64,000 nucleotides of DNA, from assembly GCA_032718475.1 (NCBI GenBank), contig JAUCBJ010005512.1, positions 90,270 to 154,269 on the forward strand, in the 5' to 3' direction. The translations under genes were made by a program, and so were the position numbers. This DNA comes from Nemertoderma westbladi. Taxonomy: Eukaryota > Animalia > Xenacoelomorpha. The notes below the pieces were generated by a model. The model saw only the letters and a program-made list of their open reading frames with translations. It was not told the origin of the DNA and searched no databases. How positions within the stretch are numbered: the stretch's first letter is position 1; the number at the start of each line of letters is the position of its first letter. Below, piece by piece: positions 14,059 to 62,266 of the stretch.

Positions 14059-14124
14059 GTTTTATAAATGTTGTATGGCTGTCACTTATGGGCCACCGTA
14101 GGATAGGGAGTAACACACGATATA

Positions 14125-28680: not shown

Positions 28681-28731
28681 CTACTTTAATATCAAATAAT
28701 AAAATTTACGGGAATAAATTTAAATTCATAA

Positions 28732-31214: not shown

Positions 31215-31312
31215 AAATTGCATAATATTCGGAACAATATAAATTGCATAAGTTCGGAATAATATAAATCGCATAAGTTCGGAATAATATAAATTGCATA
31301 AGTTCGGAATAA
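31215..31312. repeat. 25-bp tandem repeat in the BEL-B 3' non-coding region
   Basis: (aatataaattgcataagttcggaat) x ~4, with further degenerate copies nearby. Confidence 0.8.
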
Positions 31313-31595
31313 TCACAAATATAAAATATAAATTCTTACTAAATATAAATCTTTACTAAATATAAACATAAACTGCATAAGTTTAGAATAATATAAACTC
31401 CTTTGCATCTCAAATATGAAACATAAATCTTTCAAATATAAGTTCCTTCTAAATATAAACTTTCTAAATTTCATAAATTCGGAACAATACAAATTGCTTA
31501 AGTTCGGAATAAACACAAATATAAATATAAATTCAAATAAATCACAAAATCATAAGAAAGGCTCACGAGTCTTCCGTCCACCCTTGCCCTCCCTT

Positions 31596-33540: not shown

Positions 33541-34202
33541 AATTAGGGGTGTAGTTACATAATCATTACTACTAGAGGGAATACAACAGAGTTTGTAGTT
33601 AGTTATGAGGAGACGTGAGAGTTTCGTCTGCCCTTTGGGCTCGACAACGCTCTAACCTCCTACCCATAGCCTAAGATCTAGGGTTTCTTTAATGACACGC
33701 TGCTTCTTATCTAAAATTTTTTGCCGAAATAAAAACGAATTTGGGCTAAACTGGCTGTGAGTCTAAAATACTCACTTTTTGATCCCAAACTATTATCAGA
33801 AAATAAGCAATCAAGAATTAGTAATAAATATAGGGGAGTCTATTTTGACGTAACTTATTGAAACAAGACCGTGTAAAATTTAATTAAAAAATTTTTAAGA
33901 AAGGCTCGCAAGTCTTCCTCTCTTGTTTCTCTAATTTTAAGTTCCACCCGACTGTACCCTGAAATCTATTCACTGGAGAAAATTTTAAAAATTTTTCAAA
34001 TCCAAATGGATTGTCTAAATTTTCGAAAATGTCTCAATATTGTGAGTTCCAAGTAGAATTCCATTTCTTATACCTACAAATCCCGCTCCTATGTGACACA
34101 TAAGGGTACTACCCTCAACGTTCACATATAAAGACAATGGAATTCTACCGCTGTCCTTACTACGGTGTACAGGTACGTGGAAATCTATTTGTAAACTCCT
34201 AA

Positions 34203-34730
34203 TTATTTACTAGTATTAGGTGGAGATTTGTAGTCTCCAGACTCGTTACGAGTCTCTTCAAGAAGTACGAGACGTTGAGTCGGTCTGTTAACTGTACGAC
34301 CGTCAATTGTCCGTACCGTCACAGTTCTTGTCACTCCATCCATAGATGGATGTGTGGCTAAAATTACACCTGTTATCCAGAAGCGTCTTTTTAGATTCAC
34401 TTCCGCTAACAGCACGTGATCTCCCGGCTTTAATGCGTGGGTGTTATTGTACCAAGTTGTTCTGGCAGAAATAGAGGGCAAATAATGGTTTTGCCATATT
34501 TCCCAGAAATTGTTAGCCAGTAGTTGCGTGATTTTCCACGCCTTTCTACCGTAGCTGTCGCTTTCTATTGGAATAGAAATCGGCGTCAAAGTGGTCGGTG
34601 CCTGCATTAGCAGGTGTGCCGGTGTCAAAGCAAACTGAGATTGTTTGTCATCGGGTACTAATACTATTGGTCTAGTATTTAGTATTGCCTCGATTTCAAC
34701 AAACAATGTTGTCAGTTGGTCGTCTGTCAA
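34203..34730 (-). CDS. BEL-B integrase C-terminal part (frameshifted continuation of pol)
   Basis: LTTLFVEIEAILNTRP..LTPAHLL..FWEIWQNHYLP..GDHVL..DGVTRTV..RPTQRLVLLE, the Pao integrase C-terminus. Confidence 0.9.
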   Translation of the reverse strand: MTDDQLTTLFVEIEAILNTRPIVLVPDDKQSQFALTPAHLLMQAPTTLTPISIPIESDSYGRKAWKITQLLANNFWEIWQNHYLPSISARTTWYNNTHALKPGDHVLLAEVNLKRRFWITGVILATHPSMDGVTRTVTVRTIDGRTVNRPTQRLVLLEETRNESGDYKSPPNTSK

Positions 34731-34738
34731 TATGTGGT

Positions 34739-37700
34739 TTACTGGAATGACCTTTGCGCCATTGCCGTCTTTATAGATCTAATCAATCTCTCCCAGACTC
34801 CGCCTCTCCATGGACTATCTGGAGGATTAAACTTCCAAACAATCTTGTGAGGTTGTAGTTCGTTCGAGATTTGACCATGATCTAATTTCTTAAAGGCTCT
34901 AGCAATCTCATTCCGAGCACCAACAAAGTTTGTCCCTTGGTCTGAGTACAAGCATTTCACTAGTCCGCGTCTAGCGATAAATCGCCGCAGTGCTAGTATA
35001 AACGCGTTGGTGGAAAGATCCATCACACGTTCAATGTGAACTGCCCTACTGGACATACATGTGAAAATCAGTCCCCAGCGTTTTACTAGTATACGTCCAC
35101 GTTTCGTATGTATGGGACCAAAGCAATCAATTCCAGTCTCTGTAAAAGGTGGTCTGAATGCTTGAAGTCGTGCTTGTGGAAGTTCACTCATTTCCTGGGT
35201 ACCTATTCTAGAATGTACCTTTTTACAAATAATACACGTACGTGTCACTGAACTTAACGCTTTACTAGGTCTAATCAATACAAATCTTGTACGTAAGTAG
35301 GAAAGACAGTGGTGTCTTCCAGCGTGTTTCAGATGTAAATGTGCATCCAGTATCATTGCACGTTGTAGTTCGTGGTGTTGCGGTATTATTATTGGGTACC
35401 TAAAGTTTGTGTTAAAGTCAATGTTTTGAAGCCGAGATTTATGACAAAGTAAGCCATTATAAATTATCGGACTCCAACTCAGTATTGGTGACGACTTAAT
35501 AGGTTGACCTTGATTTATGGATGTGAATTCGCGCGCGAAATATCGCAGTTGGTAATGGCGAATTAATTTAATCTCACACCTTTCAATCTCAGCCAATGTA
35601 AGTCTACGTGTAAAGTCGCGTTTGCCTTTAACGTATTGTACAAAACGTACAATCCACGCTAATTTTCGGCAAGCGTTCGTCCAAGAATCTGTTAAGTTTA
35701 CAATACGGTCGACGTAAGTATTTGTGACGTCATCAGGTAAGTCAATGGAGAATTTGGAAGGTTTTGAATTACTAGAAGGGCCCACGGGTCCACCGGTAAG
35801 TATTCCCTTGTTGACTGTTGATCCGTCCGGGTCTACAAGTAATTTGTCCTTCTTCGTCTTCTTACTTTGATCGTCAGTACTTTGTAAGTCGATCGTTAAT
35901 GGTGGTTTGAACTCTATGGGGTCAGCAGGTTTCGGTAAACTTATTTTTCTGCCGACATTAATCCCAGGTCTCACCATAGGTTGCAAGTTCGGTATGTCTC
36001 TTGAGCGCAAAGTAACACCTGTATTTACATTAGCGTAGGTACTACCCACATCTGTAATACATGAGGTTTCACCATGCTTATGGTTGCTCAAGTGTGTCAA
36101 AATTGGTAGTTTGTAAATACAAGGCCGCTCCAATAGGGAAACTGCGGCTTTATGGTTTGTCAATATGTTACTAGTGTCTGGTAGAACATTTTGTGACATG
36201 TCTGGTAAAATGTTTCGCGGAACATCCGGCGAAATATCTAGTGACGTGTCTGGCAAAACGTCTGGTTGACCGTCTAGTAACGTGTCTGGCGATACGTCTG
36301 GTAACGTATCTAGTAACGTGTCAATAGAAGGCCGCTCCAATAGAGAAACTGCGGCTTTACTATTTGTCAATATGTCACTAGTGTCTGGTAGAACATTTTG
36401 TGACATGTCTGGCAAAACGTCTGGTTGACCGTCTAGTAACGTGTCTGGTTGACCGTCTGGCGATATGTCTGGTGTAGAAAGGCTCGCAAGTCTTCCTCTC
36501 TTGACCTTTGAAGTTATATCTTTCCATTTCGCCTTCGGTTTTTTCTTGAGTTTTGCCGCCGTCGTCTTTTTCTTTGCCTTCCCCTTTTTTGGTTTCTTGA
36601 TTTCGGCGTCCTTAGGGATGGTGTTAGACTTGTTGTCGTATAACGGTGGCCAATCTTGCGTCGATTTCTGCAAGAATTGGGGTCCGTGTTGCCAAAATTC
36701 TTTGTTCTCCGGTTTACAGAATTCCTCAGGCATCATTCCTCGCGACGCAATATCAGCTGGGTTTTGTGGTCCGGGACAATGTCGCCAATCCTCTTTTATT
36801 GAACGATCTAGAATTTCTGCGCGACGGTTAGCTACGAATGTCTTGAATTCAAGTGTGTCGTTGTTTATGTAAAATAAAACCAACGTCGCGTCAGTCCAAT
36901 AAAATATCTGTAAACTTGACTGTAATTCTGTCTGTATGAGGTTCACGATGGTGGTTGACAGGGTTGCGGCTTGTAGCTCAGCTCGTGGTGTCGTCATATA
37001 CTTAGTAGGCATTGTTTTTGCCTTAGAAGTAATGAGCGAAACATCGAATGCTTCTGAGTCTACTTGTCTGCGCAAGTACGCTGCCACACCAAAGCCGTTG
37101 TCACTGGCGTCAGAAAAACAGTGTAATTCCAAGTTGTCAGGGAATGTTGTTTGTAATGGAAAGTAGACTCTGGGTATGGAATAATTCTCTAGCGAAGATA
37201 ATTCCGCCTCCCAGGTCTTCCATAAGTCCACTTGGTCTGATGAGATCGGCTCGTCCCATGTCAGTCCATCCTTCCAAATACTGCGCATATAAATGCGGGC
37301 TTGCAGTATTACTGGACTGATGAATCCTAATGGATCGAACAATCGGCTCAATTTTGACAAGCATGATCTCTTTGTCAGTGTGTTTTCTTGACTGTCCAGT
37401 CTCACTTTCACTCGAAAGTTGTCTGTGTTTGGGTCCCAAAAGAGCCCCAACACCTTGGTCGTCGGTAGTGGTTCGAACTCTAGGTCTATGTCACCACCTC
37501 CACGCTCAGTCATTCCGAATGAGTCTACTAATTCGGCACTGTTTGAGGCGAATTTGGTGAGGTTAAAACCTCCGCCCGCTAAGCAGTCCCGTAATTGATG
37601 TGCTACTGTTGTAGCACGTTCTACTGTGTCGCAACTCTGTAAACCGTCATCGACGTAAAAGTCACGCTCCACAATCCTAATTATCTCTGGGTCATACAGG

Positions 37701-40700
37701 TGTTTCTGATCCCTAGCGGCTTGTTTTAGGGCGTACATCGTGCAGTTTGGGCTGTCCCTGGCACCGAAAACGCGAACTTGCATTTGGTAAGTCGCCGGTG
37801 GTAGACTTAAGTCTCCTTCCGGATACCAGAGGAACCTCAAACTGTCTCTGTCTCGCTCTAACGCTCTCACTTGGTGAAACATCGCTTCAACGTCGCAAGT
37901 AAAAGCTACTTGACGCTGACGGAAGCGCATAATCACCCCCATAAGATAATTATTCATGTTTGGTCCATCCATCAACTCGCTATTGAGGGACATTCCCTCA
38001 AACAGAGCCGCACAGTCATTGACTACACGTACTTTGTCTGGTTTGTCGGGGTGTCTTACGTAGTGATGTGGCAAGTAATACGTCTGGTCAGTCACTCGCT
38101 CCGGGTTAGTCATTCGGATAGCGTATCCCTTGGTCAAATACGTCTCCATCTGAGTGTTGTACTGCAGATGGGCTTTCTCGTCCTTTAATAGACGCTGTCG
38201 GATTGAGTGTAGACGTCTTAAAGCCATTGGGTAGTTATTTATGAGTTTAGGACTTTGGCTACGCCATAACATCCCTACCTCATAATGTCCGTCCTCCGTC
38301 TGGCAGATAGTATCTTCCATGATCTTCAGAGATTGTTTCTCCTGTTCCGACATACATGGTTCGTAGCTACCAGGTTCAGCTGTATCTTGTTCTAACCACC
38401 TGATAGTCTTCTCCGTTAATTCTTTGTCCAGTGCAGCTTGTTCCATTTGATGATTTCTCAACGCGTCATCATCGATATCGACGGGCATTGTTGAGGTTAT
38501 TGGGGTAGGTAGACTCGCAAGCCTTCCGGCGTTATCATCTGTCGTCGATGGAATCTCTAGCTGACTTGTCTTCTCCCCAAGTTCTAAACTCCGCTGGTGG
38601 ATTAGCTGCTCCTTGTGACTTATCATACTAGTCACACGTCTGTCACGTTTTGTCGACTGTAGTATAGTATGGTTCACGTCGTGTGAGAAAGAATGAATTG
38701 AATTTGTAGTTAATAAACTACATGTACTTTGTACATCGTCTTCCTCGTCACTTACGTCTAGTGTGCGCACAGGCGCTCGAGTATACCAGCCTATCGGCGT
38801 TCTGCAGGCGTATGCGTTTCCCGCTACGACTGCCGATGGTCTGGTTTCCCACACTTGGTGTAGGTTGAATTGGTCTGTCCCGATCAGCATGGCTACCGAT
38901 CTATAATTGACAGGACATTCGGTTACACCAAGGTGTCTGAAATACTTACGGTCCTCCAAGGATTGTTCTGGGACCGGACCTAGTAGGTTACTAAAGTCTT
39001 TTGTGGCCGCAAAGGTCAAATCCTTGAAGGGTAACAAAGACCTCTCCCTCTCGCTGTGTTGCGATTTCGGAAGAAGAGAGTCTAAGTTTAACTTGACTCG
39101 TGTCACTGGTATTGCACGCTGTCCGTGCATACTACTTACGGTATAACTGACGCGCTTACCTTGTCTGAGATCCGTTACGACGTCAGCTATCTTTTCATCC
39201 ACGTAACTGTGAGATGAGGCTGAATCTAGAATAGCGTAGATTCTCTTACTCCCCTTTGTGCCAGTAACCTTAATCGGAATTACACTGAATCCCTTCAGTT
39301 GGTCAGTAGTCAGAAGCGCGATCGATGGCTGTTCATCTCCATCCGAATATACGTCGTCGTCTTCTGACTCTTCGTCCGACGATCCGGATTGTTCTGAGAA
39401 GCAATCCTCAATATGGGTCACGAAGGTTGGAGTCGTTTTCGATTCTCGTTTTCTGTAGGCCGCATCACATCTCGCTGCTGCTTCCGGGTGTTCCCTGGCG
39501 AAGCGTTTTGTCGGCGTGTGGCTGTCTGTGTGGAGCAGACCGTCGTGGTTGTGTCCACAGGATGGACAAGTGTCGGTATTTGGGCAATCTTTACGGACGT
39601 GTCCGTGTCGCGTACACCGCCAACAAGAGTCCAATGGCCGTATCTGCAGCCGTCGTTCTTCCGAGTTTAACTCGCGAAACTGTCGACAACCTCGCAACTT
39701 GTGACCGATATACCGCTTGCCTAAATGCTCGCAGTATTGGCAGCCGCTGAAGTCGGTACTGAGTTGTTGTCTCGTCTGTTTTGTCCCAATGGGCGCAGAT
39801 ACCCTACTACCGTCCGAGAATTGCCGTGATTCCATCGGTGTGGCGTAAGTGGCCGTCTTAGTGGATGTTGTCTGGGGTTTTTGTCGGTTGGAGGATGGCA
39901 AGGTGATCCCTTCTGCTACGATGTGCTGGTCAGTGTAGTTGGATCGAGTCTCTACAACTGCTTCCCTGGATATCAAAAGGTACACATCCTCTAGTTTTAA
40001 GAATCCACCCCGCTCTTCTCGCTGGTATTCGATCTTTCTCCACTCCCGACGAAGCCGATGGTGGAGTCGTCCTATGATCTTTAATAGGACTGTAGGGGTA
40101 TTCCCGTAGTCAAGTTGTCCAATGGATCTTAAAGTAGTGATAGCGTTCTTTATCTCGTCGGCCAGTTTTAATAAGTCGACGGGTTTAGTGATAGCCCCTC
40201 CCTTACAGAGTTCCTCTATTACTGACCTGGCCATACTGACTTTACCTCCATATATCGAAGTTAAACGATCGTACGCTAGTTTGAAGGCGTCCGGTACACC
40301 GACGAAAGTCTCCGCCAAACGTTTAGGTTCTCCTGACAACGTTTGAAGCAGGTAATTAAACTTCTCCCGTGATGTAAAGGCGCACACGGCGATCTGGGAT
40401 TCGATATAGTCTACGAAAGTGTGCCAGTGTTTTGAGCTACCGGAAAACTTCGGTGGTTGTTGTACCGGCAATCCCTGTCTGGCTGCGAATTTCGCTATCT
40501 CCTCGGCAACGTTCAGAGTTTCGCGTCCTTGGTTGGTACACTGGTTGATATTCTCCCTTCTTGGCGCTTTCCCCTGATACGATGTGTTTTTTGAAGGTAC
40601 CGGTCTTTGTGGTTCCTTCGGGTGTCTATTGTGTTCGAACTCAGTGTTCCTCGAACTGTCGGTTTGAACTTCCTCCAGACGCTCCTCGATCTGAGCCAAC

Positions 40701-43042
40701 TTGTTAACAACTGGTCGCAGGATGTCGGCGAACTGTTGTGTACTGATTGCGTCCGTTGGTTGTAACGCCTTCTGTGTTGGTGTATTCTGTGGAGGATTGT
40801 CTACAAAGGAGTTGTCTGAACGCTCGCGTTTATATTCATCGGCCGCCCCTGTTCTAAATACCTCGCGTTTCGGGTAATCCGATTCGCTCGAAGTACTACT
40901 ATCATCTGGATATGGTGGTCGACGTGCTCGCGTCCGTTGCGTCGTACAAATTCTCACGTTTCGTTTCGGAACATCGTCCACTGATCTCCGTTGTTCGGTA
41001 GGCTCACAAGTCTTCCTCGAAGTCGTAGATTGCGATGTAAACTGATTTAACGGTTGCGTATCCACTGTTCTCCGTTGTTCGGTAGGCTCACAAGTCTTCC
41101 TCGAAGTCGTAGATTGCGATGTAAACTGATTGAACGGTCGCGTATCCACTGTTCTCCGTTGTTCGGTAGGCTCACAAGTCTTCCTCGAAGTCGTAGATTG
41201 CGATGTACACTGGTTGAACGGTCGCGTATCCACTGTTCTCCGTTGTTCGGTAGGCTCACAAGTCTTCCTCGAAGTCGTAGATTGCGATGTAAACTGAACC
41301 GGTGGTCGGACGACAGCGTTTGAATCCAAAGGCCTTGTTGGCCTAAACGTCATTGGGTAAGCGTAGTGTGTAACGGGTTTAGGTGTCGACGGTGGACTCA
41401 CCTGTTTAGTCGTCAGTAGTGCAGGTCCGACTAATAAACTACTACGATCTGTAATCGGTGGGTTACTTACCTTGACCCTCGGAATAGGCGATGACGTTGC
41501 TCTTGGCGGTGTAAACTTGTCCGGAATAACAAACCTGTGTTCCGTCGCACCATGGATAGGAGAAATATTACTACTACCAGCAATCGAAACAGGTTCCTTA
41601 GTCGTAACCGGTGCAAACATATGAGTTACCTGTGGGAATCGTTGACACAAGTCCTTTACTAATTGTCGTTCCCGTCCGGGTGCTCCTACGCTTCCTTCCT
41701 TCTTCCGTTCCTGAATTTGGCGATGTCTTACCTCTATCTGGTCCAAGTCATGTCCGTCTCGAGATCTCATCGATCGATCGCGGGCTTGTAGATCCAGATC
41801 TTCCTTCGCGTTGGCTAATTCTCTCGCCTTCTTCCCGAGTTCGAAATGAGGTTTAACTTCCTTCTCGCGTTGTTCCGTCTGTTGTTGTTGCGCCTCGAAC
41901 TCCGCTTGTCGTATAGCTGATTGAGCCTTTATTTGCCGTTTTTTCATCTCGGCTCTCGCTTCTGATACTAACCTCTGTCGCTCTAACTCAGCCGCTGCTG
42001 CTGCCGTTCGTTGCGCTAACTCGGCCGCTGCCGCTTGTTGGGCGATGTCCAACTCCAACCTTTCCATCTCGGCCGCTTCCAACTCGGCTTGTTCTTGCAG
42101 ATGAGAGATTCTTGCAACATTCGCAACACGTAGTTTTTCTTCTTCTACCGCCGCTTGTGCCGTCAACAGTTGAGCTTGTTCCTCATCTTCCCGTTGTTGT
42201 CTATCATGCTGTTGTTGCTGTCTGGAAATTTCTGACGTCACTATACTTATCTCGCCAATTTCGCTGCGAATACTCACTAACGATTGGTCCAGTATTCCCG
42301 GTGCCGATTCGATTCGTACGGGTGAAGTTTCCCTCGTATATTCCGGCACGGTTTCCAAATCGCCGATGTCTTCGCCGCACATACGTAAGTGGTCCGTCAG
42401 ATGTTTCAATTGTCCATCCAGTCGGTACAGTTCCTGTTCTTCCTCGGGCTGCAATAATTCGTCCGAAACTGACTCACCTAACAACTGGTCTGCTTGTTCC
42501 TGTTGTGTCTGCCTAATCGTCGACTTAAACTGAATCAGTTTCTCTCTAGCGATCATTAGTTTCTCGAGGATTCTAAGTTGATTATCCATGTCCTGTCTCT
42601 GTCTAGCTAGATCTTGTAGACCGATTAGGTTATCTACGGACTTGTGTACTCTAGTTTGCACTCTAACCTGGAGGGTGTAGAACTCGAATCGAGACATCGG
42701 AGCGGTCAACTCGTCTAATATGCGTTGGCCTTCTCCAATACTCCTGGTTATATGCGCCATGTATCCACCGACGCTCCTAACAACGCTTTCCTGACTTCCT
42801 GCTGAACTTACCATGTCCGATTCCCTATATCTAGGTTGCGGAACAGTTAGAAAGTCCTCGGTCCTGCCGTTGCCTCGTACTACGGCATCCGGTACTCCCG
42901 TTGGATGTACTGGTGACGCACACGGTGTAGGTTCGGTAGGCTCGCGAGTCTTCCCCTGTTGTTCTTCCGCTGCTGACTTATCTCCATCACATGAGTCATA
43001 GTCGGTAGGTGTATTTTTCGTATAGTCTGGTTTGTCACTCAT
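34739..43042 (-). CDS. BEL-B gag-pol polyprotein, 2767 aa
   Basis: Gag PPKFSGSSKHW with 3 Cys/His knuckles; protease AILDSAS; RT KVRVVNDC, DVEAMFHQV, YVDD; RNase H FSDAS/YWTDA/NPADIASRG; integrase HHCC, GIDCFGP, SDQGTNF, GGVWERL. Confidence 0.97.
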   Translation of the reverse strand: MSDKPDYTKNTPTDYDSCDGDKSAAEEQQGKTREPTEPTPCASPVHPTGVPDAVVRGNGRTEDFLTVPQPRYRESDMVSSAGSQESVVRSVGGYMAHITRSIGEGQRILDELTAPMSRFEFYTLQVRVQTRVHKSVDNLIGLQDLARQRQDMDNQLRILEKLMIAREKLIQFKSTIRQTQQEQADQLLGESVSDELLQPEEEQELYRLDGQLKHLTDHLRMCGEDIGDLETVPEYTRETSPVRIESAPGILDQSLVSIRSEIGEISIVTSEISRQQQQHDRQQREDEEQAQLLTAQAAVEEEKLRVANVARISHLQEQAELEAAEMERLELDIAQQAAAAELAQRTAAAAAELERQRLVSEARAEMKKRQIKAQSAIRQAEFEAQQQQTEQREKEVKPHFELGKKARELANAKEDLDLQARDRSMRSRDGHDLDQIEVRHRQIQERKKEGSVGAPGRERQLVKDLCQRFPQVTHMFAPVTTKEPVSIAGSSNISPIHGATEHRFVIPDKFTPPRATSSPIPRVKVSNPPITDRSSLLVGPALLTTKQVSPPSTPKPVTHYAYPMTFRPTRPLDSNAVVRPPVQFTSQSTTSRKTCEPTEQRRTVDTRPFNQCTSQSTTSRKTCEPTEQRRTVDTRPFNQFTSQSTTSRKTCEPTEQRRTVDTQPLNQFTSQSTTSRKTCEPTEQRRSVDDVPKRNVRICTTQRTRARRPPYPDDSSTSSESDYPKREVFRTGAADEYKRERSDNSFVDNPPQNTPTQKALQPTDAISTQQFADILRPVVNKLAQIEERLEEVQTDSSRNTEFEHNRHPKEPQRPVPSKNTSYQGKAPRRENINQCTNQGRETLNVAEEIAKFAARQGLPVQQPPKFSGSSKHWHTFVDYIESQIAVCAFTSREKFNYLLQTLSGEPKRLAETFVGVPDAFKLAYDRLTSIYGGKVSMARSVIEELCKGGAITKPVDLLKLADEIKNAITTLRSIGQLDYGNTPTVLLKIIGRLHHRLRREWRKIEYQREERGGFLKLEDVYLLISREAVVETRSNYTDQHIVAEGITLPSSNRQKPQTTSTKTATYATPMESRQFSDGSRVSAPIGTKQTRQQLSTDFSGCQYCEHLGKRYIGHKLRGCRQFRELNSEERRLQIRPLDSCWRCTRHGHVRKDCPNTDTCPSCGHNHDGLLHTDSHTPTKRFAREHPEAAARCDAAYRKRESKTTPTFVTHIEDCFSEQSGSSDEESEDDDVYSDGDEQPSIALLTTDQLKGFSVIPIKVTGTKGSKRIYAILDSASSHSYVDEKIADVVTDLRQGKRVSYTVSSMHGQRAIPVTRVKLNLDSLLPKSQHSERERSLLPFKDLTFAATKDFSNLLGPVPEQSLEDRKYFRHLGVTECPVNYRSVAMLIGTDQFNLHQVWETRPSAVVAGNAYACRTPIGWYTRAPVRTLDVSDEEDDVQSTCSLLTTNSIHSFSHDVNHTILQSTKRDRRVTSMISHKEQLIHQRSLELGEKTSQLEIPSTTDDNAGRLASLPTPITSTMPVDIDDDALRNHQMEQAALDKELTEKTIRWLEQDTAEPGSYEPCMSEQEKQSLKIMEDTICQTEDGHYEVGMLWRSQSPKLINNYPMALRRLHSIRQRLLKDEKAHLQYNTQMETYLTKGYAIRMTNPERVTDQTYYLPHHYVRHPDKPDKVRVVNDCAALFEGMSLNSELMDGPNMNNYLMGVIMRFRQRQVAFTCDVEAMFHQVRALERDRDSLRFLWYPEGDLSLPPATYQMQVRVFGARDSPNCTMYALKQAARDQKHLYDPEIIRIVERDFYVDDGLQSCDTVERATTVAHQLRDCLAGGGFNLTKFASNSAELVDSFGMTERGGGDIDLEFEPLPTTKVLGLFWDPNTDNFRVKVRLDSQENTLTKRSCLSKLSRLFDPLGFISPVILQARIYMRSIWKDGLTWDEPISSDQVDLWKTWEAELSSLENYSIPRVYFPLQTTFPDNLELHCFSDASDNGFGVAAYLRRQVDSEAFDVSLITSKAKTMPTKYMTTPRAELQAATLSTTIVNLIQTELQSSLQIFYWTDATLVLFYINNDTLEFKTFVANRRAEILDRSIKEDWRHCPGPQNPADIASRGMMPEEFCKPENKEFWQHGPQFLQKSTQDWPPLYDNKSNTIPKDAEIKKPKKGKAKKKTTAAKLKKKPKAKWKDITSKVKRGRLASLSTPDISPDGQPDTLLDGQPDVLPDMSQNVLPDTSDILTNSKAAVSLLERPSIDTLLDTLPDVSPDTLLDGQPDVLPDTSLDISPDVPRNILPDMSQNVLPDTSNILTNHKAAVSLLERPCIYKLPILTHLSNHKHGETSCITDVGSTYANVNTGVTLRSRDIPNLQPMVRPGINVGRKISLPKPADPIEFKPPLTIDLQSTDDQSKKTKKDKLLVDPDGSTVNKGILTGGPVGPSSNSKPSKFSIDLPDDVTNTYVDRIVNLTDSWTNACRKLAWIVRFVQYVKGKRDFTRRLTLAEIERCEIKLIRHYQLRYFAREFTSINQGQPIKSSPILSWSPIIYNGLLCHKSRLQNIDFNTNFRYPIIIPQHHELQRAMILDAHLHLKHAGRHHCLSYLRTRFVLIRPSKALSSVTRTCIICKKVHSRIGTQEMSELPQARLQAFRPPFTETGIDCFGPIHTKRGRILVKRWGLIFTCMSSRAVHIERVMDLSTNAFILALRRFIARRGLVKCLYSDQGTNFVGARNEIARAFKKLDHGQISNELQPHKIVWKFNPPDSPWRGGVWERLIRSIKTAMAQRSFQ
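40975..41297 (-). repeat. 84-bp in-frame tandem repeat (~4 copies) in BEL-B gag
   Basis: Encodes FTSQSTTSRKTCEPTEQRRTVDTRPFNQ repeats. Confidence 0.95.
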
Positions 43043-43127
43043 TTCGGTAGTTGTAAGTCAAGTAAAGTGAGTGTCAAAGTATCGAGTTTACCGTATTTAT
43101 ATCTAAACGGTACTAATTACAGTCATA

Positions 43128-43250
43128 TAAAATTAGCCTACCGGCCGATTTTATAGCAGATGGATAAAATTAGCCTAAACGGCCAATTTTACAGCAAATA
43201 AATGTCACGGAATAAGTATATAATAAAATTAGCCTAGCGGCCAATTTTAT
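43128..43250. repeat. Three short imperfect repeats in the BEL-B 5' leader
   Basis: aaaattagccta..cggcc.atttta x3. Confidence 0.7.
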
Positions 43251-43843
43251 AACAAATAAATCGGATAACGATATGCGTTATCAAAAGGTAAATTAAATAC
43301 AATAATACGGACTAATTCAGCAATGAACAAAGAAATCATACGGAATGCATAAATACTTGAGACAGTGGAACCCACAATAATTTTAACTAATACGGTAATG
43401 CCTAACTTATTTATGCAACTTTTCGAACTCACCCACTCCAATAATTCTCCAGAAAAACAGATTCCCAGATACAAACCGAACGTGAACCTTTCCGTTTTTA
43501 ACGTTGCGGACGAAGCGCGATTTTCCCAACCAAAGTTGTTGAGTTATCTATCTCCCAAACTTGCTAAACACGGTCTTGCTCCCGTTACAGTCTAGAAATG
43601 AGTTCTGAATCCTGAAAAACAAAAGAGTTAGGTTTTACTTTTTACGAAAATTTTGTACCGGTACAATATGGTATTTAAACCCTTTTTAAACACCGGTATT
43701 CAATTCCAAAAATATTTTACACGCGGTTCAAATCAAATTTTATTTCAAAAAATATTAGCACTTAGCTAATCAAATATAAACTTTTACCTCAAAATACAAA
43801 ATTTTCAAATAACTTTAGTCCTACCGAACCGTAGTTCAGTAAA

Positions 43844-43854
43844 CACATTCCTAC
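43844..43854 (-). promoter_or_regulatory. BEL-B PBS position: non-tRNA, complementary to an 11-mer in its own LTR
   Basis: Element-sense gtaggaatgtg is exactly complementary to element-sense cacattcctac at 44885-44895 (and 29763-29773). Confidence 0.75.
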
Positions 43855-45359
43855 TATTCGAAGAGACGGTAACAATACCTGCAATATCTTACTGTAAAGT
43901 TTGTAAATCAATCATAAATCCGACCTTCTCACCAAAACAGTAAACTCTAAGTAAGCGAATATATTGCAGTATCGATCTCTTATAACCGGTGAGGCAGAAA
44001 ACAGTCTACGAGCAGACAAACTTCGATAAAACAAAATCCCGCGCAGCGAATCCTAAAATCAGGCTGACTCACTGACGGACTAAGGGGCTCGTACACTTTG
44101 CCGCGGTGTGATTTATATGGTTTGGGCGAAGAGACGCTAGCTAGGTACACAGGCAGAGATTTGGAGATGTCTAACTAGCGGGCAAAGCACAGTACGGACA
44201 AAAGTTAAATTTTATATATTTTGAGGTGTAAATAATTCCTAACGCGCGTGTGTTAATTCTGAACGGTCAAAAACAGTTTTGCTCCTTCACATATATAATT
44301 ACTGGGTACGGTGTACATTTTACGAATATTCGAATTTTGCAACTTGTAGGTCCAATACTCACGAATGATAAAGTTCCTTCCCCTCTTGCGTATTTCCAGG
44401 ACTCAAATTCAGGCATAAAGTTAATGCTACGCCCAGAATTCGGCAATTTTAGGTACCAGGTCCCTGATACTAAGAAGAGATGTGTTAGTTTACTACTGTA
44501 GGCGTACAGTTACTAATAGCTATCCTGGCTCCTATCTAGAATTTTAGTCACCCAGGTAGTCCGGGTAACTTCCTATTAGGGCGTTGGCGGGGACACGGTA
44601 GATGTTAGTATATCCCTAATAGCCTCAATTTATTTGCGCCTAGCTGTAAACTGCCCTACCGCCTGAACGGTACAATCCCAATTCAGGTGAAAACACAGCA
44701 ACCCCCCTAGCCTACAAGTTCTAATGCAATGGACACTGTCGTACTACAAATAGTCGCACACACATCTGTACTTAGCAAGAGTTAGGCGTACAGTTTGCTG
44801 CACCCTACCAATTTGTATGCTTCGTACCGGTGTGCCTACATCCTATCTGCGTACTAGTATCTGCCTGCTCTTTCCCTCTCCCCCGTAGGAATGTGAAGGT
44901 CTACTGTGGTTTTTCCTGAATCGAGACAGTACAGTCCCTAAGATGTAATTTTAGGCTCACAGCGTGTCACTACTTCTACCTTTTGATCTTTGGTCTTACG
45001 CTTAGGTAGCGAGGTGTCGAACGCTGTCTAACCTTCAGGCGATGGGCGAATAACTCAAGATGGTATTGTGGGTTGTCTCTTGTCTACATTCCCGTGATGT
45101 TCCCGTTCATTGCTGCGGCCCGATCTCTAGCCGGCCATCCTGTCCTTAACTTTGTTCACCGTAGTGAATCATGGTAAAACAGATAGAAAAGGCAGATTAG
45201 CAATAATTCTGACTTTATTACAGAAGATTATAATAATATGTCCAATGTAATCTGAAATAAACTAAGCACGACAGAATTAAAGTGATGTGTGTGAGAGATT
45301 GAATGAGAAGTATAAGATAGATTGAGAGATTGAATGATAACTAATGAACAAATCGCACC

Positions 45360-45506
45360 TTTTTATACTAAATTTGTGCCGCAATCAATCGAGAAAATTC
45401 TCGATTGTTCTATAGGTTCTAACGGGGTTTTAAAGATAGCTATTGGTCCAGCTAATATATAACTTGCACGACATTGGTTACAATCAAATAACTACAGTCT
45501 CATTGG
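45360..45506 (-). promoter_or_regulatory. Candidate Pol II promoter in BEL-B U3
   Basis: Three CCAAT boxes (45442-6, 45473-7, 45502-6) upstream of TATAAAAA (45360-7); AATAAA at 45214-9. Confidence 0.5.
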
Positions 45507-45582
45507 TACAGACAAATGCAATTAATTTGTAGCGGTCAATTTAAATGAGTTGAAATTCTGCACAAAAAATAATTCGCACTTA

Positions 45583-45650
45583 CTAGGATTCGAACTCAAT
45601 ACCTACTACACATATAATTTCCAACGCTCTACCGACTGAGCTACTGAACC
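45583..45650 (-). ncRNA. Degenerate tRNA-like/SINE-head Pol III cassette in the BEL-B 5' LTR
   Basis: Same sequence as 30461-30528. Confidence 0.6.
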
Positions 45651-46398
45651 ACTTGACCAATAGGCGTACAATAGATATAACAAATACAAATGAGGATTCA
45701 AAGCAATCTTTTACAAAGTTAATTCGAATAAAATAAAATTTTGAAAATCCACGGCATTTAGGGAATATAATTCTATACATAACCTCTCATGAATTTGATA
45801 AATTGTCATTTTATACAATTTATAACATTCCCAAAATTCCATTAATTAATAGATCATGGGAGCGGAGATTCACCCTATTAAGTATATTACTGTGCGAGAA
45901 TCTCCAATGTATAGTCAATAGCCGATAAAAATTAATAAAATCATGTATAAAGGGGAATATTGACAATTAAAGAATTACTATTAAATAGCATCCCAGATCT
46001 GTTTGCATGAGAATTACCCTAATTCTACTCCTAGCTTTCCATAATGTCACCATAGCAACAACCATGCTAGAATTAGAAGCGAGTTAAAAGAACAATAGAA
46101 AGCTTGCCCCATTGAATAGCATAAGGAATAAATAGCACCCTGCTAGTATCCAGGGATACATAACAATAACGTGGCATTCTGGAAGGCACTTGACTAACAG
46201 ACAAATGGCCCGAATGTGTACAATTTGTGACAGGAGTATGGAATTTGTGTATTTATAGGTGAATGTTACTACTAAAGTGTGTTTACAGTAGCGAGTCGCA
46301 GTTGTGAAAGTTACCCTGCCTCTGTAGCAAGAACCTCCAGTAATTCTAAGCCCTTGGGACAGACAGTGGAGTGACTCGCGCTGGTTATTGTTGTCATT

Positions 46399-48520
46399 GT
46401 GTGGCTACTACATTGGCGAGAGGCACAGCGACGACAGTACATCAGCGCTGAGGATCTTGCGCTGTCCGGGGGCATTGAGGAGGAGGCAGCTAGTCAACCT
46501 ACTACGGAGGACAATGGCCGTTATATCAAAACACCAATGTCAAAGGAACAGAATTGGACTGAATTGGACTATAGAAAATTCACCGTTCGCTATACGCATC
46601 GTAATGACATGATACATGACACGGACGACGTAGACACCGAAAGGGAAATGATTCTGTTTAAATATCATACCCAGCGGAGTCGGAATGATAAACTGAGAAT
46701 CGAACACGAAAATTATATTCGAAACCGACTCGAAAGAGAAGACGTAGAAGAATGGGATAAACGCAGTGACTTCAACGAATATTTGGAATTCTTGAGAGAA
46801 ACATATCTCAATGTAGCCAGTCAACAAAATCTAGAAACTCGATATCCTCAAGGTATACATCATAACCCTATGATAGAACTCAAACGACTCTATTTCACTA
46901 TGATGTATCTTACCGCCGATCGACCGCTACCTGTTGTACCGGATAGCTTCGAACAGATGGAGGAATATTGTAAAACTGGAGAAAGAACGCCCGCATTTCC
47001 CCTACAAGACGTGCGTCTTTGGTATTATTGCGATGAATGCCCTAGACCCAACCAACAAACGGAAAGACATAAACATCCGCGGAGACGTTGCGCTAAACAC
47101 AGTTTTACTCGCTATACTTACGGGCTTGTTCGACGTATCACCCACGCTCGCTCGACTCAAACGATCCTTAAATAAACCGATGATCAGAGTTCCGGAATAC
47201 TCGGTCAGACCTCCTCATTCCCTGGTGAGACCTCAGACTCTTAATCCTAATAGTATGACGGATCCTCCTGAACTGTACTCATTGTTCAAAGATCTAGTGT
47301 TACCCGAACAATTAGTCGGTGGCACTCCGGTTGTGGGCTCCCTAGATATTCGCCCATCCTACCTAGCCAGATTGGGACGCGGACACCCAATATCGCCGTT
47401 CAACCCGTATAATCATCCCGGTTTAACGCCGATACAACCTGTCACCGAGGTGGAAGAAAGCGTTGTACGAAACGTGTTAGACGCTATTCGACAAAAGATT
47501 GGAAAAGGAACCTACGATTGTTTAGATAAACGTAAATTGCAGCAGCAAGTCCAAGCGGTAAAGGAATTAGCCTTACCCCAGTTCGATCGGGAAATCCAGA
47601 ATCTCGAAGAAGATATCGAACTTGGACGAACCTACTCTCTACAAGAGTTTTTAGATGAACGCTTCCAACGACAAGCAGAGGAAAATCAGCTCGAGGAGAA
47701 GCACATTGAAATGGATGAGAGAGAAGAAGCAGCTTTAGCCCAGCCAGAAGCTCAAATCCTTATGACTGATCTCTATTCCAAAACCATTATTCATCCTTCA
47801 ATGGTTCCCCATTTCGGAGACAAACTCTTCGCCATGGTACAACCCCAACCGGTTGATATCAACCTAAGATCTAGAGATCTTATCGCTGACGCTCCTATGT
47901 TACAACGTCCGCCGGTCGAAGCTGCTCGTGTCGACGGTATACTCGTTGAACCTCCGGACAATCGAGCGGATCTTGTCCGTTGTATGGTACACGAGGTCAA
48001 CCTATGCGCTAGACCTTTACCGAACTAATTTTATGGGATCAAAGACCACCCTTATTATGTCAATTTAACTCAATATTATATGGTGAAACCGGAAGATCCT
48101 ACGCACAGTTTAAAGTTCACAAACTCGCATCCAGGGCTACAAGAAGTTCATAGACGACCATATGAATATAGAGCCCGAGAACGCGAGTTGGAAAGAACCA
48201 TCAAACCGAGGAAATTTCTCACTACTCACGGTCAACCTACCGCTCTCGTGCAAACGACCCGTCAGGGACCAGTAAGAGCTGCTGTCCTGAAACACGCTCT
48301 AAAGGTTGTTCGACCTCGTTCCACTGAGGTTGATATAGATCAACCGGGTACCTCGACCGGCGGATACACCGACCGTAACCCGAAACCTTCCGATGCAATT
48401 GTATTGCACCCCTCACCCAGGAGTTATAGCCCTCCTAGTAAAGTGGCTCGCCCCAAAGAGAAAAGGACTCTTGCTAGCCTCAAAAAACTTCGTAAACGCC
48501 GTTCACGTAAGAAGGACTAA
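46399..48520 (+). pseudogene. BEL-A accessory ORF after pol (disrupted; unknown function, not env-like)
   Basis: ORF pieces 46399-47175, 46934-48028 and 48080-48520. BEL-C has 14 extra nt (agtttcgagcgaaa) that join the first two frames. Ends in a basic KKLRKRRSRKKD tail. Confidence 0.75.
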
Positions 48521-48598
48521 TAGTTTAGAGTATTTTTTGTATTTTAGAAACTGTGATTTTTATATTTTATAGACTTAAATCCCATTTTCTGGGAGCGG

Positions 48599-49548
48599 TG
48601 TAAAAGCTTTTGCGGACATAACAAGTCATTTTTCCGCAATGCGCAGAATACTCTAAAATAGCCCTAAATTTGTCCAACGACACGACGGGAAGGGATTGGA
48701 GCTGGTGTGACGAAATCTATCAGCTGATTCTTTGTGGATGTGGAATTTTTCTTTGTTCTGCCTCATTCAGCCAATCAGAGCAATTTTCCCTTTATGTCTA
48801 ACAGAGGCCTACGGAAACTCGCGCAATGCATTACGGTCTTTGTTTACCTTTTTCTGAGCCTCAGAACCAGCTCGGAATTCTCTGTGCTTCTTGAGGAAGT
48901 TTCAGACTTTAGCATAGGGACATCAGATGGCTTTGATTATAAGAACGTAAATCTATTACCATATCATATCGCACCAACTTACCCAATGCATTACGTAACA
49001 CATACTGACTGTTCACCGCATTATTTTACTTCTGTTTACAGTATGTTATTAATTGTTGTTATATTAATGGATATTGCTGTTATATTTGGAGAATACCGAT
49101 AAATAATCATAAAACCCCCAATCTTCTTGATTACTGAAGGTAAGAGGAACAGGTTTACAGGTAGCAACTGCGACTTACATTATATTGGTTTTGTGTGAAC
49201 TAAATGCTATTTCATAATCCCTACATGTGTCAATTAGTATAAGTCATAACTCTTTTTTATACTTAAAGCGCCACGCCCCAAAGGAACTGTTTATATTTCC
49301 CCGAAAGTAAATATATTTGTCAGAGATTATATAGTAACGATCAATCAAATAATACAGTAGGTCTACACTGCAATAATTTCAAGGCATCCGAATCCAGTCT
49401 CCCTAAACCGACGGACTGGTGCACGGACTGGCTTCGGCTGATGTAACTTCAGTACATTAGGTAATTGTTAAATGCTAAAGTCGATTTATAAATAAGAGGA
49501 CAACTAAAATTGGCAGGTTAAACTGCTAAAGGTCTAAAAGCGCGAACA
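48599..49548 (+). repeat. BEL-A 3' LTR (internal deletions relative to the 5' LTR)
   Basis: Matches 17043-18126 but lacks ~130 bp around 17676-17806. Confidence 0.95.
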
Positions 49549-50827: not shown

Positions 50828-51980
50828 TGTAAAAGCTTTTGCGGATCTAGCTAGTCATTTTCCCCGCAAAGTACTCTGTAGGTGTTTTAGCGGACATAAA
50901 AAGCAGTTTTCTTACTGTGTAGGTGTTTTAGTGGACATAAAAAGCCATTTTTCTGTATGTGTACTTTAGCGGACATAACTAGCGATTTTATGCCGCAATA
51001 CGCCAAAATACTCTTGATACAGTGTAGTTCAGATGACGACATCTATCAGCTGATATGTCCACGTAGAGCTTTTTGGACCAATCAGAGCGATTTTCATTTT
51101 ATTTGCACAGAAGCCTCCGGGAAATCGCGCAATGCATTATGGTCTTTGTTTACCTTTTTTCCTGAGCCCAGAACATCGGCTGTGGAATTATTCTGTGTTT
51201 CAGACTTTAGCCAAACATTAGAATGGCTTTGATCATAGAAACGTATAACTGTTATCGAACTGGTCAGACTCAAATGCTATACATACCTTTCACCGCATTG
51301 TTTTACTGCTATTTACTGTCGGTTATTAATTGTTATCAGTTGATGGAATGTTGTTATATTTGGAGAATATCGATAAATAATCAGAAAACCCCAATCTTCT
51401 TGATATACTGAAGGTTAGAGAGACCGGTTACATATAGCAATTGCGACTTACATTATAGTGGTTTTGGAGTGAATTGAATGCTATTTCATAGACCCTACAC
51501 ATGTGTCAGTTGCTGTTCTCCTTATATATGATTAAAATTAGTGAAGGTCGGCAGATCAGTGTGCAGCAGTGTGCGGTAGTGTGCATGAGTGTGACAGATA
51601 ACAAAGCATTTCCTAAAGAATGCGCTTTATACGAAGATCATTAGCCATCCCGTTGTGTTTAGTGTAAGTCATAACTCTGTTTACATACTTAGAGCGCCAC
51701 ATCCTAAAGGAACTGTTAATATTTCCCGAAAGTGAATAATATTTGTCAGAGATTATATATTAACGATCAATCGAATAGTACAGTAGGCCTACACCGCAAT
51801 AAGGTCAGAGCATCCGAATCCAGTCTCCCTTAACCGTGGGTGAATGATCGCGCATAGGCTGGCTTCGGCTAATGTAACTTTATGTGTATCAAATACTTGT
51901 TATAGGCTAAAGTCGATTTATAACCTAGAAGACACCTAAATTTGGCAGGTTAAACTGCTAAAGGTCTAAAAGCGCGAACA
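50828..51980 (+). repeat. BEL-C 5' LTR
   Basis: Matches 62267-63435 (about four substitutions and two small indels by eye). Confidence 0.96.
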
Positions 51981-51991
51981 ATAACAGTTAT
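51981..51991 (+). promoter_or_regulatory. BEL-C PBS position: non-tRNA, complementary to an 11-mer in its own LTR
   Basis: ataacagttat is the exact reverse complement of ataactgttat at 51245-51255 (and 62702-62712). Confidence 0.7.
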
Positions 51992-53890
51992 TGCTTTCTT
52001 TATTGCAACGTAGGCAATAAAGTCGAAAAGTACCGGTCGACCGGTAACCAGTAGGCCTGACTACCTAACCACCCGAACCGGTACTTACAGCAGTACAGGT
52101 ACAGCAGTATTATTCGATTTTGATAATTATATACCGGTAGGTCTTAATATTTAATTGGGGACGCCTGGTTTTTTATTGGGATTTTACTTATTTCTGTCAG
52201 TTTTATTTATTTGTAAGTTAATATTGAGCAGAAGGCGTGTAAGCCTGCTCAGATTGTATAAATAATTTGTAGGCTGGATTGTTGTCTGGCTGTTGTTAGG
52301 TCTGAAGAGATTGCAGTGTGTGTAGAGTGTATGTCCGATAAAGTACTAGTTAGGAACGTGGGGGCATCCAGTGCTGTAAGGTAAATCCCCCCCGAAAGAA
52401 TAAGTCGTACTACTCGGTTAGAACGCATACTAACTAACCATTTCGGAGTCTGCATATACTGTAGTTTATTTAGGCTTGATAGTAGTCTGCCAGCGTTTGG
52501 TTTGTATTTTGTTTGTGTAGTCTGTACGGGTAGCGTAATATTTATTATTCAGAGTTTATGTGATTATTCGCAACATACATACCCCCAAGTTTATTCCTAC
52601 AGTAATTGTGCTTGTTATACATACCGTTATAGTTAAATTAACCCCGGTACTACATCAGGGCTGTTTGGCGTAGGTAAAGACTGGTGATTTTATGCTCTGG
52701 TCACTCCGGCAGATACCGTGGTTCTTTAAGCTGTACAAGTATTTTTAACTGCTGGTTATTTGTTGTATAAGTACTTGTACCTAATTTAGGGTTTAGTGTA
52801 CAGTGCTTTCCGAAGGTAATTAGTGTGTAGTCAGTATATTTGTGTTGTAAAGTGGTTAATAGGCACGTTAGCTATAGTAGGCTGCGGTAATTAACTTCTA
52901 GGTAGGAACACTCCGGGTACATAACGTAGTACTTATAGCGCTACGGCTATAAGTCGTCAGACGGTGGTATTTTCCTATCTATCTGGACAACGCAATATAT
53001 TTACTACTGCTTTATTATTTTCAAATACCATAGTATCCTGTCCGTTTGTAATAACCAGAAATTCTAACTCCTTGTTAGGCTGGTTTGTAGGTTTCTTGTA
53101 AAATTAACCCTAAAAATTCGTATGTGTAATTTTTGTGTTTATTTAGAGATTGTAATCTCACCCCGCAATTGTACGTAATTTGTAGTAATAAGTAACTTAG
53201 GCAAGTAGAATTATTTGTTTTAGTGTCCAACAAGTAGCACTTCACTGAGAGCGTACAGCTTCTGTGTAGTGACTCCTTCCCAGAAATAATAACATTTATT
53301 TCAAACATTGACAAAAACCCATTATACGGGTATATATATATTATAAATCAACTCAAACCGATTTATAAAATAGTAGGCCTGTCATCCATCAATTAGGTCT
53401 TAATATCAGTTGGACTACTGCTTAAATAACGGTAATAAAGTAAAGTAAAGTAACCAAGTAACACCTAAAATTCAGAAATTCAATTAATCTAAAATAATTG
53501 ACATACCGGTATTTACAATAGGCTTATTATATTTATTTCTATTAATTTGAGCTGAAATTATATACCGGTATTCTGTAATTAATTCTAGTTTATAATTATA
53601 CTTATATACTATAAGTGTAAGTTGTATACCGGTATTCATGATAGGCTTATTATATATTTATATATATTTGCGCTGAAATTACATACCGGTATTCTGTGAC
53701 AAACCTAGTCTGTAATAATACTTATATATATACTATAAGTGTATACCGGTATTCTAATATATTGTGTATATATATCGCGTTACATAGAGTAACGATATCG
53801 GTAATTAATTACTAGGCTAACAGTGATACTGAATTACTAGACTTGCTTTAACTGTAATATAGCAGTAGGCATTCAACTGTACAAACAAAC

Positions 53891-56800
53891 ATGTCTGACA
53901 CAAAGCAAAACCTGTCAGACAGTCTCCTAGATACAACCATCTGTGACCCAGATAGGAGTGCTGAACGTTTGAGACCGAAGTTCAACTCACCTCCTACTGT
54001 AAGAAAGATCATCCCTCCAGTAGTAGTATCAGACCCTAGGCTAGTCCAACACCGTAGGTCTATCATAGGCACTCAGGCTCAAGTCAAGCGGGATCAAGAA
54101 GCAGCTGTCAAACAGCAGCAACACCCTAGCCGAGAACTTATTTCTCAGCGGCCCGATAGCTCCAGTAGTTCGGATACTGTAGAGCTGACACCCGAGCGCG
54201 GAGCAAAGATGGCAGATGCGGTTTATTCGGATCCCCTTCTCATTCTTCCTGCAGCCGTACTCACTAGGGTATTGATTGCGGTGGAGGAACACCAAATTGA
54301 TTGGGCGAGAAGTAAGCGATCGACCAAGGATAGTTATGCGGGATACACAAGGGAGGAACTGAAGTCTATTGTCGAGTCGCAATGGAACTTCCCCAGACCC
54401 GGACTCCCGTTTAACTTATCGGAAGCTGCCTGGGAAGACTTATACAGGATGGGAGTGACAAAGGACACTGTGATCCAGCTGTATGGAAGAGGTCGGCAGC
54501 AGGATATGTACAGGGATTCTTCAGCTCTTTGGAGCGATTAGAGGAACAACTGTTTCAACAACACCAAGGACCTCAAGAGCAGGGAGAGCTGCTTTATAAA
54601 GTTCGAGTAAGAATCCTAAGAATCAGACTCCTCCTATCAGCCTTTGAGGAAGCTTCGAAGAGAACCCAAGACACGTCGTTGCAAGTTTCCGTCAAGACTT
54701 GGTTCCAACGGGTGAGTCTCAAGGTTCAAGGAACGACCCAGTGGAAAATTCAGCTAACTGAGCGCTCGACCCATGGAGAATCAACAGACGCTACCTTTTC
54801 TTAAGTGGAAAGCGAAGCGACAGCAGAGAAACCGCAGAAGAAGGACGCTATTGACATCTATCTGTCAGACTATCAACGATTTCTAGGTGACGAAGAGTTG
54901 AGGAGAAGGCTGGCTGGACTTCGCCCTAATAGTGAAGGAACCAAGTTTGTGCTGGACGCAATAGATGCGGAAATGCTAGCTGCGAACCAAGCTAAATTTG
55001 ATGAAAGCATCCGCATCGCTAAGGTTCAAGGAGAACAAGTAAAGAAAAAATGTATAGAAGACCGAAAGGCGGCAGCGGCGGCAGCAGCGGTAGCTGCAGA
55101 AGTTGAAAGAAAAGCGGCAGCGGCAGAAGCAGAAGCGGAAATAAAGGCAGCAGAAGTGGAAAGGAAAGCGGCAATGGCAGCGGCAGAAGCGGAACGAAAA
55201 GCGGCCGAAGTGGAAAGAAAAGCGGCAGCGCCAGAGGCAAAAGCGGCAGCTGCAGCAGTAGAAGCGGAAAGAAAAGCGGCAGCGGCAGAGGCAAAAGCGG
55301 CAGCGGCAGTGGCAGAAGCAGAACGGAGGGCATCTGAAGAGACAACCCAACTAGAGTTGGAAAATCTTCAAGAGAAGCAAGACAACTTCAATAAACAGAT
55401 AACAGCTAGTCAGATGCAGCTGATAAGTCGATCCACCCCCAAGCGACAGGGCTTTACATCATCTGATGAAGGCGATACCACCGATCCTGAAGGCGGAGGA
55501 AATAGATCTCGTCTAAGCAGGCGTAGAAGAATGCCCCACCGTCAGAAATTGCCTGATTTGCCCCCAGCTGTTAGAAGGCAACTAGCTAGCACAGACTTAG
55601 GTAGTACAGAACCCACAGACCAAATTATTAGAGTAGAAAGACTCCCTACTATAGTAGATGAGCCTGAAATAGTTAGGCCTGTTCTCGAATCCACCCCTTC
55701 GGTGATAGAGACACCTATACTCCCAGAACCTACCTCTAAATTCCCTTTGCACAGCACTAAACTACCTGTGCCCAGCAGAACCGCCCCTGAGACAGTTCCT
55801 GTCCTGGACTCCGAGCGAAATATTAACGATTTGTCGCCCGTTGTCCCTCGTCTACCCGCTACTATGTTGGCGGCTCCCGCTTCGGCGGTCGAGTGGGTGG
55901 ATGAGGGACGGCGGGGGATGGATCTCCTGCTCGGGCAGATGCAGGAGACTGTTCAACAGTTCAAGGGAACAGTAAGGGAAAGTAGGTTAGAGTTGCAAGA
56001 AGTGCAGCAGAGTATCGCGTTAGAACGCGATAAATTGGTAAATATACAAAGAGGTATACCACCACCCCCTGTAACAATGTGTCAACCTGTTCGGTCTGAA
56101 GTATTTCATGCACAACGTGTGGAGCCTACACGCATCTATACTGCTAGTGAAGTAGAAACTCCTATAGTAAACCCTATTAAGGGTAATTATAAACCTGTTG
56201 ATAATGATATTCCATATAGACTGATAATAATCCGAGAAATTTATATACCGATAACTCGATATTAAATAATACGGTGGCCCAAGAAAGTTTTACGCGTCAA
56301 ATGGCTAGAACCGAAGCCCGTCAAGCGGTAAAGGTGGGAGAGATCGTCAAGTTCAATGGAGATGAGATGAAATGGTTACCTTTTAATGAATATTACAAAG
56401 ATAACATACAGAACTCTGTGCTATCTAACGGAGAGAAACTTAGATTCCTCATCGAGTGCTTGGAAGGATCTCCCAAGTTAATGGCATTAAAGTTTATTGG
56501 ACATCCAGATGGATTAAGACAAGTTTGGGATACACTAAACATCAGGTATGGTAATAGGAATAACATAGCTAGGTATTTGTATGCAAAATTGGTAGCGCCC
56601 CGAAAGTTCATTAGCAGCGGGATTATAGAGTTTTCCGATGAGATTCAGGAGATCTGTAGACAATTAGATTGGCTAGGTAAGTCTCATGAATATCAGAGTT
56701 CTATGGTTATTGGAGCCGTGGCCTCTACTTTACCAAAGGGTGGAGTAGGTACACGCTGGGACAAGAAAGTCTTATATATGATGGAACAACAATGAAGAGA

Positions 56801-62188: not shown

Positions 62189-62266
62189 CTGTTTAGAGTA
62201 TTTTTATATTTTAGAAACTGTGATTTTTTATATTTTATAGAATTAAATCCCATTTTCTGGGAGCGG

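Follow-up and report, generated by a model that had tools for sequence, protein, structure and literature searches.

The closest described counterparts of the priming arrangement reported here come from Tf1 and its relatives. According to the portions of PMC7175516 and PMC4600332 that were available, the PBS of Tf1 can pair with an 11-nt stretch in the LTR of the same element, and RNase H separates base 11 from base 12. Self-primers have been predicted for Tcn1 (Ty3/gypsy) and for the Ty1/copia elements TAR, Houba, and Osr-1 by a rule that calls for a complement of at least 10 nt starting 0 to 5 nt after the 5' LTR, and BEL/Pao is not named among the self-primers in the available part of that study (PMC6317226). 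A term search of the main text of the Sinbad paper (PMC554778) and of a BEL/Pao survey (PMC3118150) gave no occurrence of any of five priming terms; further papers examined were PMC6934838, PMC3601003, PMC8220671, and PMC5443660. Across the literature examined, then, self-priming is shown for Tf1, a Ty3/gypsy element, and predicted for some Ty1/copia elements, and BEL/Pao goes unnamed. The literature searched yielded no publication on BEL/Pao self-priming; an earlier mention may exist in PBS tables supplementing BEL/Pao surveys, in Repbase reports, or in subscription journals. Cer7 is said to be a lead on a self-encoded primer, and a literature search on it gave nothing relevant.

Here we describe BEL-B, an LTR retrotransposon of the BEL/Pao superfamily carried on the minus strand of a 64,000-nt stretch of the Nemertoderma westbladi assembly (GCA_032718475.1, contig JAUCBJ010005512.1, positions 90,270 to 154,269; hereafter the window, to which all coordinates refer unless a relative is named). 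Judged from its sequence, BEL-B probably primes minus-strand DNA synthesis with its own RNA, in the manner of Tf1, instead of with a tRNA. If this is true, tRNA-free priming reaches a third LTR superfamily and many marine animals. It would also explain the absence of a recognizable PBS, and tools based on tRNA matches would miss or misjudge such elements. The host, in turn, would lose a tRNA-derived handle against retroelements. The window holds a young element together with a co-varying pair, and its contiguous form of the primer can be compared with the splice-assembled form of relatives.

Structure and classification of BEL-B

The 5' LTR of BEL-B (43855..45777, minus strand; 1923 nt, with TA...TA termini) is paired with a 3' LTR of 1924 nt (28732..30655, minus). 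The two differ at 6 positions (99.7% identity), and a 5-bp TSD flanks the element (left copy 28727..28731, right copy 45778-45782); BEL-B is a young, recently inserted BEL/Pao element. Directly before the 3' LTR lies the end of a polypurine tract, GGAGCGG (30656..30662, minus), which is identical in the BEL-A elements described below.

A gag-pol ORF of 2772 aa (34739..43057, minus) has domain matches to DUF1759, RT, Peptidase_A17 (the Pao RNase H region), and integrase, the last detected as an integrase zinc domain located after the RT. The ORF ends before the Pao C-terminal domain, DUF5641, which was matched at 34203..34778 (minus). DUF5641 sits in a separate frame, so the pol frame of this copy is broken near its end. 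The translation also displays the YVDD motif of the RT and the acidic residues of the RNase H.

Like the BEL/Pao elements of marine invertebrates (Belpaoviridae), BEL-B combines DUF1759, Peptidase_A17, and DUF5641 with an integrase that follows the RT/RNase H, and it has the two LTRs, polypurine tract, and short TSD of the class. It differs from them in lacking a TGG site, in its TA...TA ends (not the usual TG...CA), and in its 1.9-kb LTRs, 2772-aa ORF, and extra 3' ORF. All listed homologues of the polyprotein carry PF05380. The best protein matches listed are 35-44% identical, and those named come from mussel, oyster, echinoderms, cnidarians, barnacle, and one fish. Tf1/sushi elements, in contrast, are Ty3/gypsy chromoviruses; BEL-B carries Pao-specific domains and not the chromovirus polyprotein. 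By analogy, BEL-B likely acts like a Tf1 self-primer without being a member of the Tf1 family.

The extra ORF of 531 aa (31596..33191, minus) occupies the interval between pol and the 3' LTR and has a weak zinc-knuckle match only. Post-pol extra ORFs occur in both BEL families of the window, at 31596-33191 (minus) in BEL-B and at 46375-48028 (plus) in BEL-A1. The two show no likeness to each other, and no envelope domain was detected in either.

Complementarity between the PBS and the LTR

The first-pass annotation had reported an exact 11-nt complementarity between the start of the internal region and the LTR, and both sites were found as it described them. The PBS (43844..43854, minus) begins at offset 0 from the LTR, and its exact complement, the candidate self-primer, is nt 883-893 of the 5' LTR (44885..44895, minus), 1031 nt away. 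An identical 11-mer is present in the 3' LTR (29763..29773, minus). The offset of 0 is well defined because the 5' LTR end (43855) is set by the second LTR, the TSD, and the polypurine tract. Pairing covers exactly 11 nt, with base 12 unpaired, and is the strongest duplex that the PBS can form within the BEL-B LTR (-17.4, against -8.1 for the next, a lead of 9 kcal/mol). When the LTR was dinucleotide-shuffled, 1 of 5000 shuffles had a complement at offset 0, and 13 of 5000 had one at offsets 0-4. BEL-B thus falls within the published rule for putative self-primers that picked out Tcn1, TAR, Houba, and Osr-1, which, by contrast, belong to plant and fungal lineages and to other superfamilies.

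No TGG-type tRNA site accompanies this pairing. By the rule used in the available part of PMC6317226, a tRNA 3'-end site is marked by TGG, which is absent from the 40 nt following the LTR in BEL-B and in both BEL-A elements, A1 and A2. An ARAGORN search of the window found no tRNA, and an Rfam search of 43000-46000 returned nothing at E<=1. In lacking a tRNA site and having an 11-nt complement in its own LTR, BEL-B resembles Tf1 and Tf2 of Schizosaccharomyces pombe, Tj1 of S. japonicus, and the Tf1/sushi group. It differs from Tf1 in the ~1030 nt that separate its primer from the PBS, in an adjoining stem that seems not to be conserved, and in that the primer of many of its relatives spans an intron junction.

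A tRNA-like stretch followed by a T run is present in the BEL-B U3 (45582-45645, minus). It holds A-box and B-box patterns of RNA polymerase III, received no ARAGORN or Rfam call, and is possibly SINE-like. As a candidate primer for BEL-B it was rejected, since it pairs poorly with the PBS (-5.6 versus -15.6).

The adjoining stem had been proposed as a second likeness to Tf1, formed by GGGGAGA (44877..44883, minus) and UCUCUUC near the LTR end (43860..43866, minus). These 7 bp can form in BEL-B, with a predicted pairing of ~0.6, and 1.1% of LTR windows pair as strongly. Such a stem beats a 5% cut-off set by the element's own LTR windows in only 2 of 14 elements. The predicted stem may be real in BEL-B, and it seems not to be common to the group.

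Comparison of family contigs over 1081 nt gave 22 substitutions and 10 indels (at least 12%), all of which miss the 36 paired nt; about one would be expected there, and the PBS lies near the edge of the stretch, so this avoidance of the paired strands shows little. One B-family contig (43997-44704) has 103 differing letters, many of them T>C on the plus strand and A>G in element sense. This single record resembles ADAR-type hypermutation.

Co-variation in the neighboring BEL-A elements

BEL-B is inserted inside another element, BEL-A1, and is followed in the window by BEL-A2. BEL-A1 (17043..49548, plus strand) is decayed, with LTRs at 17043-18126 and 48599-49548 that are 98.3% identical. BEL-A2 (50828..63435, plus) is internally deleted, has no RT match, and has LTRs at 50828-51980 and 62267-63435 that are 99.6% identical. 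The PBS of BEL-A1 (18127..18137, plus) has an exact 11-nt complement in its own 3' LTR (48949-48959); the 5' LTR copy of the primer (17394-17404) has one mismatch to the PBS in this older, decayed copy. For the BEL-A2 PBS (51981..51991, plus), exact 11-nt complements are present in both LTRs (51245-51255 and 62702-62712). Shuffle controls gave such complements in 3 of 5000 (A1) and 5 of 5000 (A2) cases.

The A1 and A2 primer 11-mers occupy a homologous place in the LTR, each preceded by the common letters AACGT. They differ at 4 of 11 positions, and every change is matched in the element's own PBS. This co-variation in effect refutes the idea that the pairing arose by chance or through a single copying error in the BEL-B copy. 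Eleven nucleotides are few and the LTR is long, and for 10 of the 13188 internal positions of BEL-B (the PBS counted among them) the LTR contains a complement of 11 nt. The offset is nevertheless fixed at 0, and the pairing is shared by three elements of the window and by 11 of 12 relatives (below), which leaves an accidental origin very improbable.

The first-pass annotation had offered BEL-B as independent confirmation of the complementarity. It is a very distant family in that the BEL-B and BEL-A LTRs do not align and the RT segments of BEL-B and BEL-A1 are 46% identical over 213 aa, but its independence is doubtful because the two are sisters in a quick, midpoint-rooted RT tree with long branches (SH-aLRT 95; no named references of the Sinbad, Suzu, Tas, Bel, Pao, Flow, and Dan clades among its sequences). 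Given that relationship, the trait was probably inherited, and the self-complementarity of the two families most likely reflects common descent, not a second origin.

Shortly beyond the PBS, A1 and A2 have an 8-bp stem (~18144-18169 in A1 and ~51997-52021 in A2) that is invariant between them while the PBS differs, and that could be a packaging or positioning signal. BEL-B has a predicted hairpin at the like place, directly 3' of its PBS (43820..43843, minus). BEL-A1 lies within a 48-nt tandem array, and the adjoining array that holds BEL-A2 is a 32-nt one; both elements have a 5-bp TSD, and stretches of array surround them at 16932-17042, 49551-50403, 50405-50828, and 63434-63916. These insertions may reflect a region rich in repeats or else a preference of the elements for their targets.

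Self-complementarity in distant relatives

A metagenome scan for relatives of BEL-B yielded 80 loci at 34-44% identity; no relatives were found in the viral contigs searched. We examined the 21 loci with long direct repeats and kept 12 in which the LTR end is fixed by both copies, leaving out 9 that are truncated or contig overlaps. The 12 include two sets of sister families, L017/L022 and L009/L012/L015.

A self-complement of 10-15 nt at offset 0-4 is present in 11 of the 12. One of these is contiguous, and the other ten are complementary only across the junction of an intron within the LTR (L015:9114-9807, L017:9225-9615, L044:6505-7045, L047:8108-8480, and L073:682-1077, together with L012, L009, L024, L037, and L022). 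All ten junctions have a GTAAG donor and a TAG or CAG acceptor, a donor rule that was noticed post hoc; GTAAG..YAG occurs in 0 of 10 control matches between unrelated families. When each PBS was paired with non-cognate LTRs, 18 of 210 combinations reached 10 nt (8 between sister families, 9 with other donors, and 1 contiguous). For BEL-B, A1, and A2 themselves a spliced primer was rejected, the contiguous 11-mers outscoring every spliced match. None of the joints listed for the family contigs has splice-like ends near the BEL-B primer.

Match lengths center on 11, the primer length given for Tf1 in PMC7175516 (10-11 nt in 8 of 14 elements and 12 nt in 4 of 14, with 15 nt in L024). Such clustering with a short tail is what a primer of constant length, 11 nt, should produce. 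Between L072 and L042, two matched primer/PBS positions differ. Among 30 hand-chosen regions of single-LTR loci, we found 10 spliced matches (10-12 nt), 8 contiguous matches, and 12 without a match; the 8 contiguous cases may be due to chance, as the LTR end is undefined in such loci.

Relatives were also where a tRNA-type PBS, the earlier reading's own counter-case, might have appeared. One of the 12, L030, has a TGG site and a self-match of just 4 nt, the single such case. The claim that self-priming replaces tRNA priming is well supported by the chance tests, the BEL-A co-variation, and the distant relatives, and is qualified by L030, which keeps its TGG. A primer taken from the element's own RNA, with no tRNA, appears likely for this BEL/Pao group as a whole.

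The pairing might instead be a conserved RNA structure with a role in packaging, dimerization, translation, or poly(A) control, some other primer, such as a tRNA fragment or small RNA, being used. The leaders of retroelements often contain long-range pairings. Half-tRNA primers are known in Ty1/copia elements, according to the available part of PMC6317226. We regard this reading as improbable. In every case the partner starts 0-4 nt past the LTR, the required seat of the primer 3' end, and pairing with the element's own LTR would block any other primer. Moreover, PBS letters vary freely by family and yet fit the LTR of their own element, which a few host tRNAs are unlikely to explain, and the tRNA-like stretch of the U3 is a poor partner for the PBS, as noted above.

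Proposed priming mechanism and the RNA start

For priming of BEL-B by its own RNA, we propose a fold of the genomic RNA in which the PBS is paired to LTR nt 883-893, with ~1030 nt of R-U5 lying between the two. Cleavage after nt 893, by the RNase H of the element if the analogy with Tf1 applies, would free a 3'-OH. Strong-stop DNA would then run back to nt 894, and the strand jump would use an R region ending past an AATAAA at +261. This hexamer (44629..44634, minus; its position counted downstream from where the primer starts) is a candidate poly(A) signal that would place the poly(A) cut site inside R. Poly(A)-type hexamers are likewise found only downstream of the primer in 7 of the 11 self-complementary relatives.

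Where the RNA starts is less clear. The first-pass annotation had placed a CCAAT/TATA promoter candidate ~465 nt upstream of the 11-mer, and it is present: three CCAAT boxes (45506, 45477, 45446) and a TATAAAA (45367) lie at 45361..45506 (minus), 472-611 nt upstream of the primer, with the TATA at 472 nt. The set looks like a real promoter, and some 30 nt past the TATA there is an initiator-like sequence. No TATA is present near -30 of the BEL-B primer. On this basis the annotation had suggested that the primer may not be the very start of the RNA and could need an internal cleavage. RNA would then begin at the CCAAT/TATA set, ~440 nt upstream, and the 11-mer would be cut from within the leader; a cut 3' of the duplex should yield a usable 3'-OH irrespective of the 5' sequence. 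In a variant of the idea, the 11-mer would come in trans from the other packaged RNA molecule or from a short transcript of the LTR.

The evidence from relatives and from folding is largely unfavorable to these two routes. The TATA is a poor guide to the start: 8 of the 11 self-complementary relatives have none upstream of the primer and L037 has one at -31, although in L015 and L024 it lies near -133, as an internal primer would allow. In BEL-B, a second AATAAA (45214..45219, minus) is located between the TATA and the primer, at -324 from the latter, and would fall inside such a transcript. Predicted pairing of the 11-bp duplex, from folds of ~1.5 kb that are rough and unreliable, is 0.96-0.99 for RNAs starting at 865-883, 0.80 at 850, 0.02-0.48 at 760-830, and 0.0 at 441-700, where a competing helix (889-896/1060-1067) takes the primer. 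The full duplex is predicted only for starts within ~30 nt of the primer. Taken together, the indirect evidence modestly favors an RNA start at, or a few nucleotides from, nt 883. Internal cleavage and supply in trans, taken together, are a distinctly less probable route; they and the start at the primer are the two parts of the self-priming reading.

A wider possibility, which we put forward tentatively, is that in a broad animal BEL/Pao lineage the 11-nt self-primer need not be the 5' end of the RNA, a route unlike that of Tf1. The BEL-B primer would then be cut from a long leader or act in trans, and the primer of relatives would be assembled by splicing.

Just downstream of the TATA, coverage depth is very low at 45231-45327, and several joints end at 45335-45342. 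This part of the LTR (45231-45342) varies among family copies, and depth there is not a measure of copy number.

Other features of the window

Upstream of BEL-A1, a BCL9-domain exon of an animal host gene is present at 5406-6773 (plus). An rva_4 integrase-like ORF (12705-13688, minus) lies between inverted 21-nt arrays (10372-10785 and 13760-14100), and the stretch at 14125-16728 comprises ~520 copies of ATAGG that are 99% pure.
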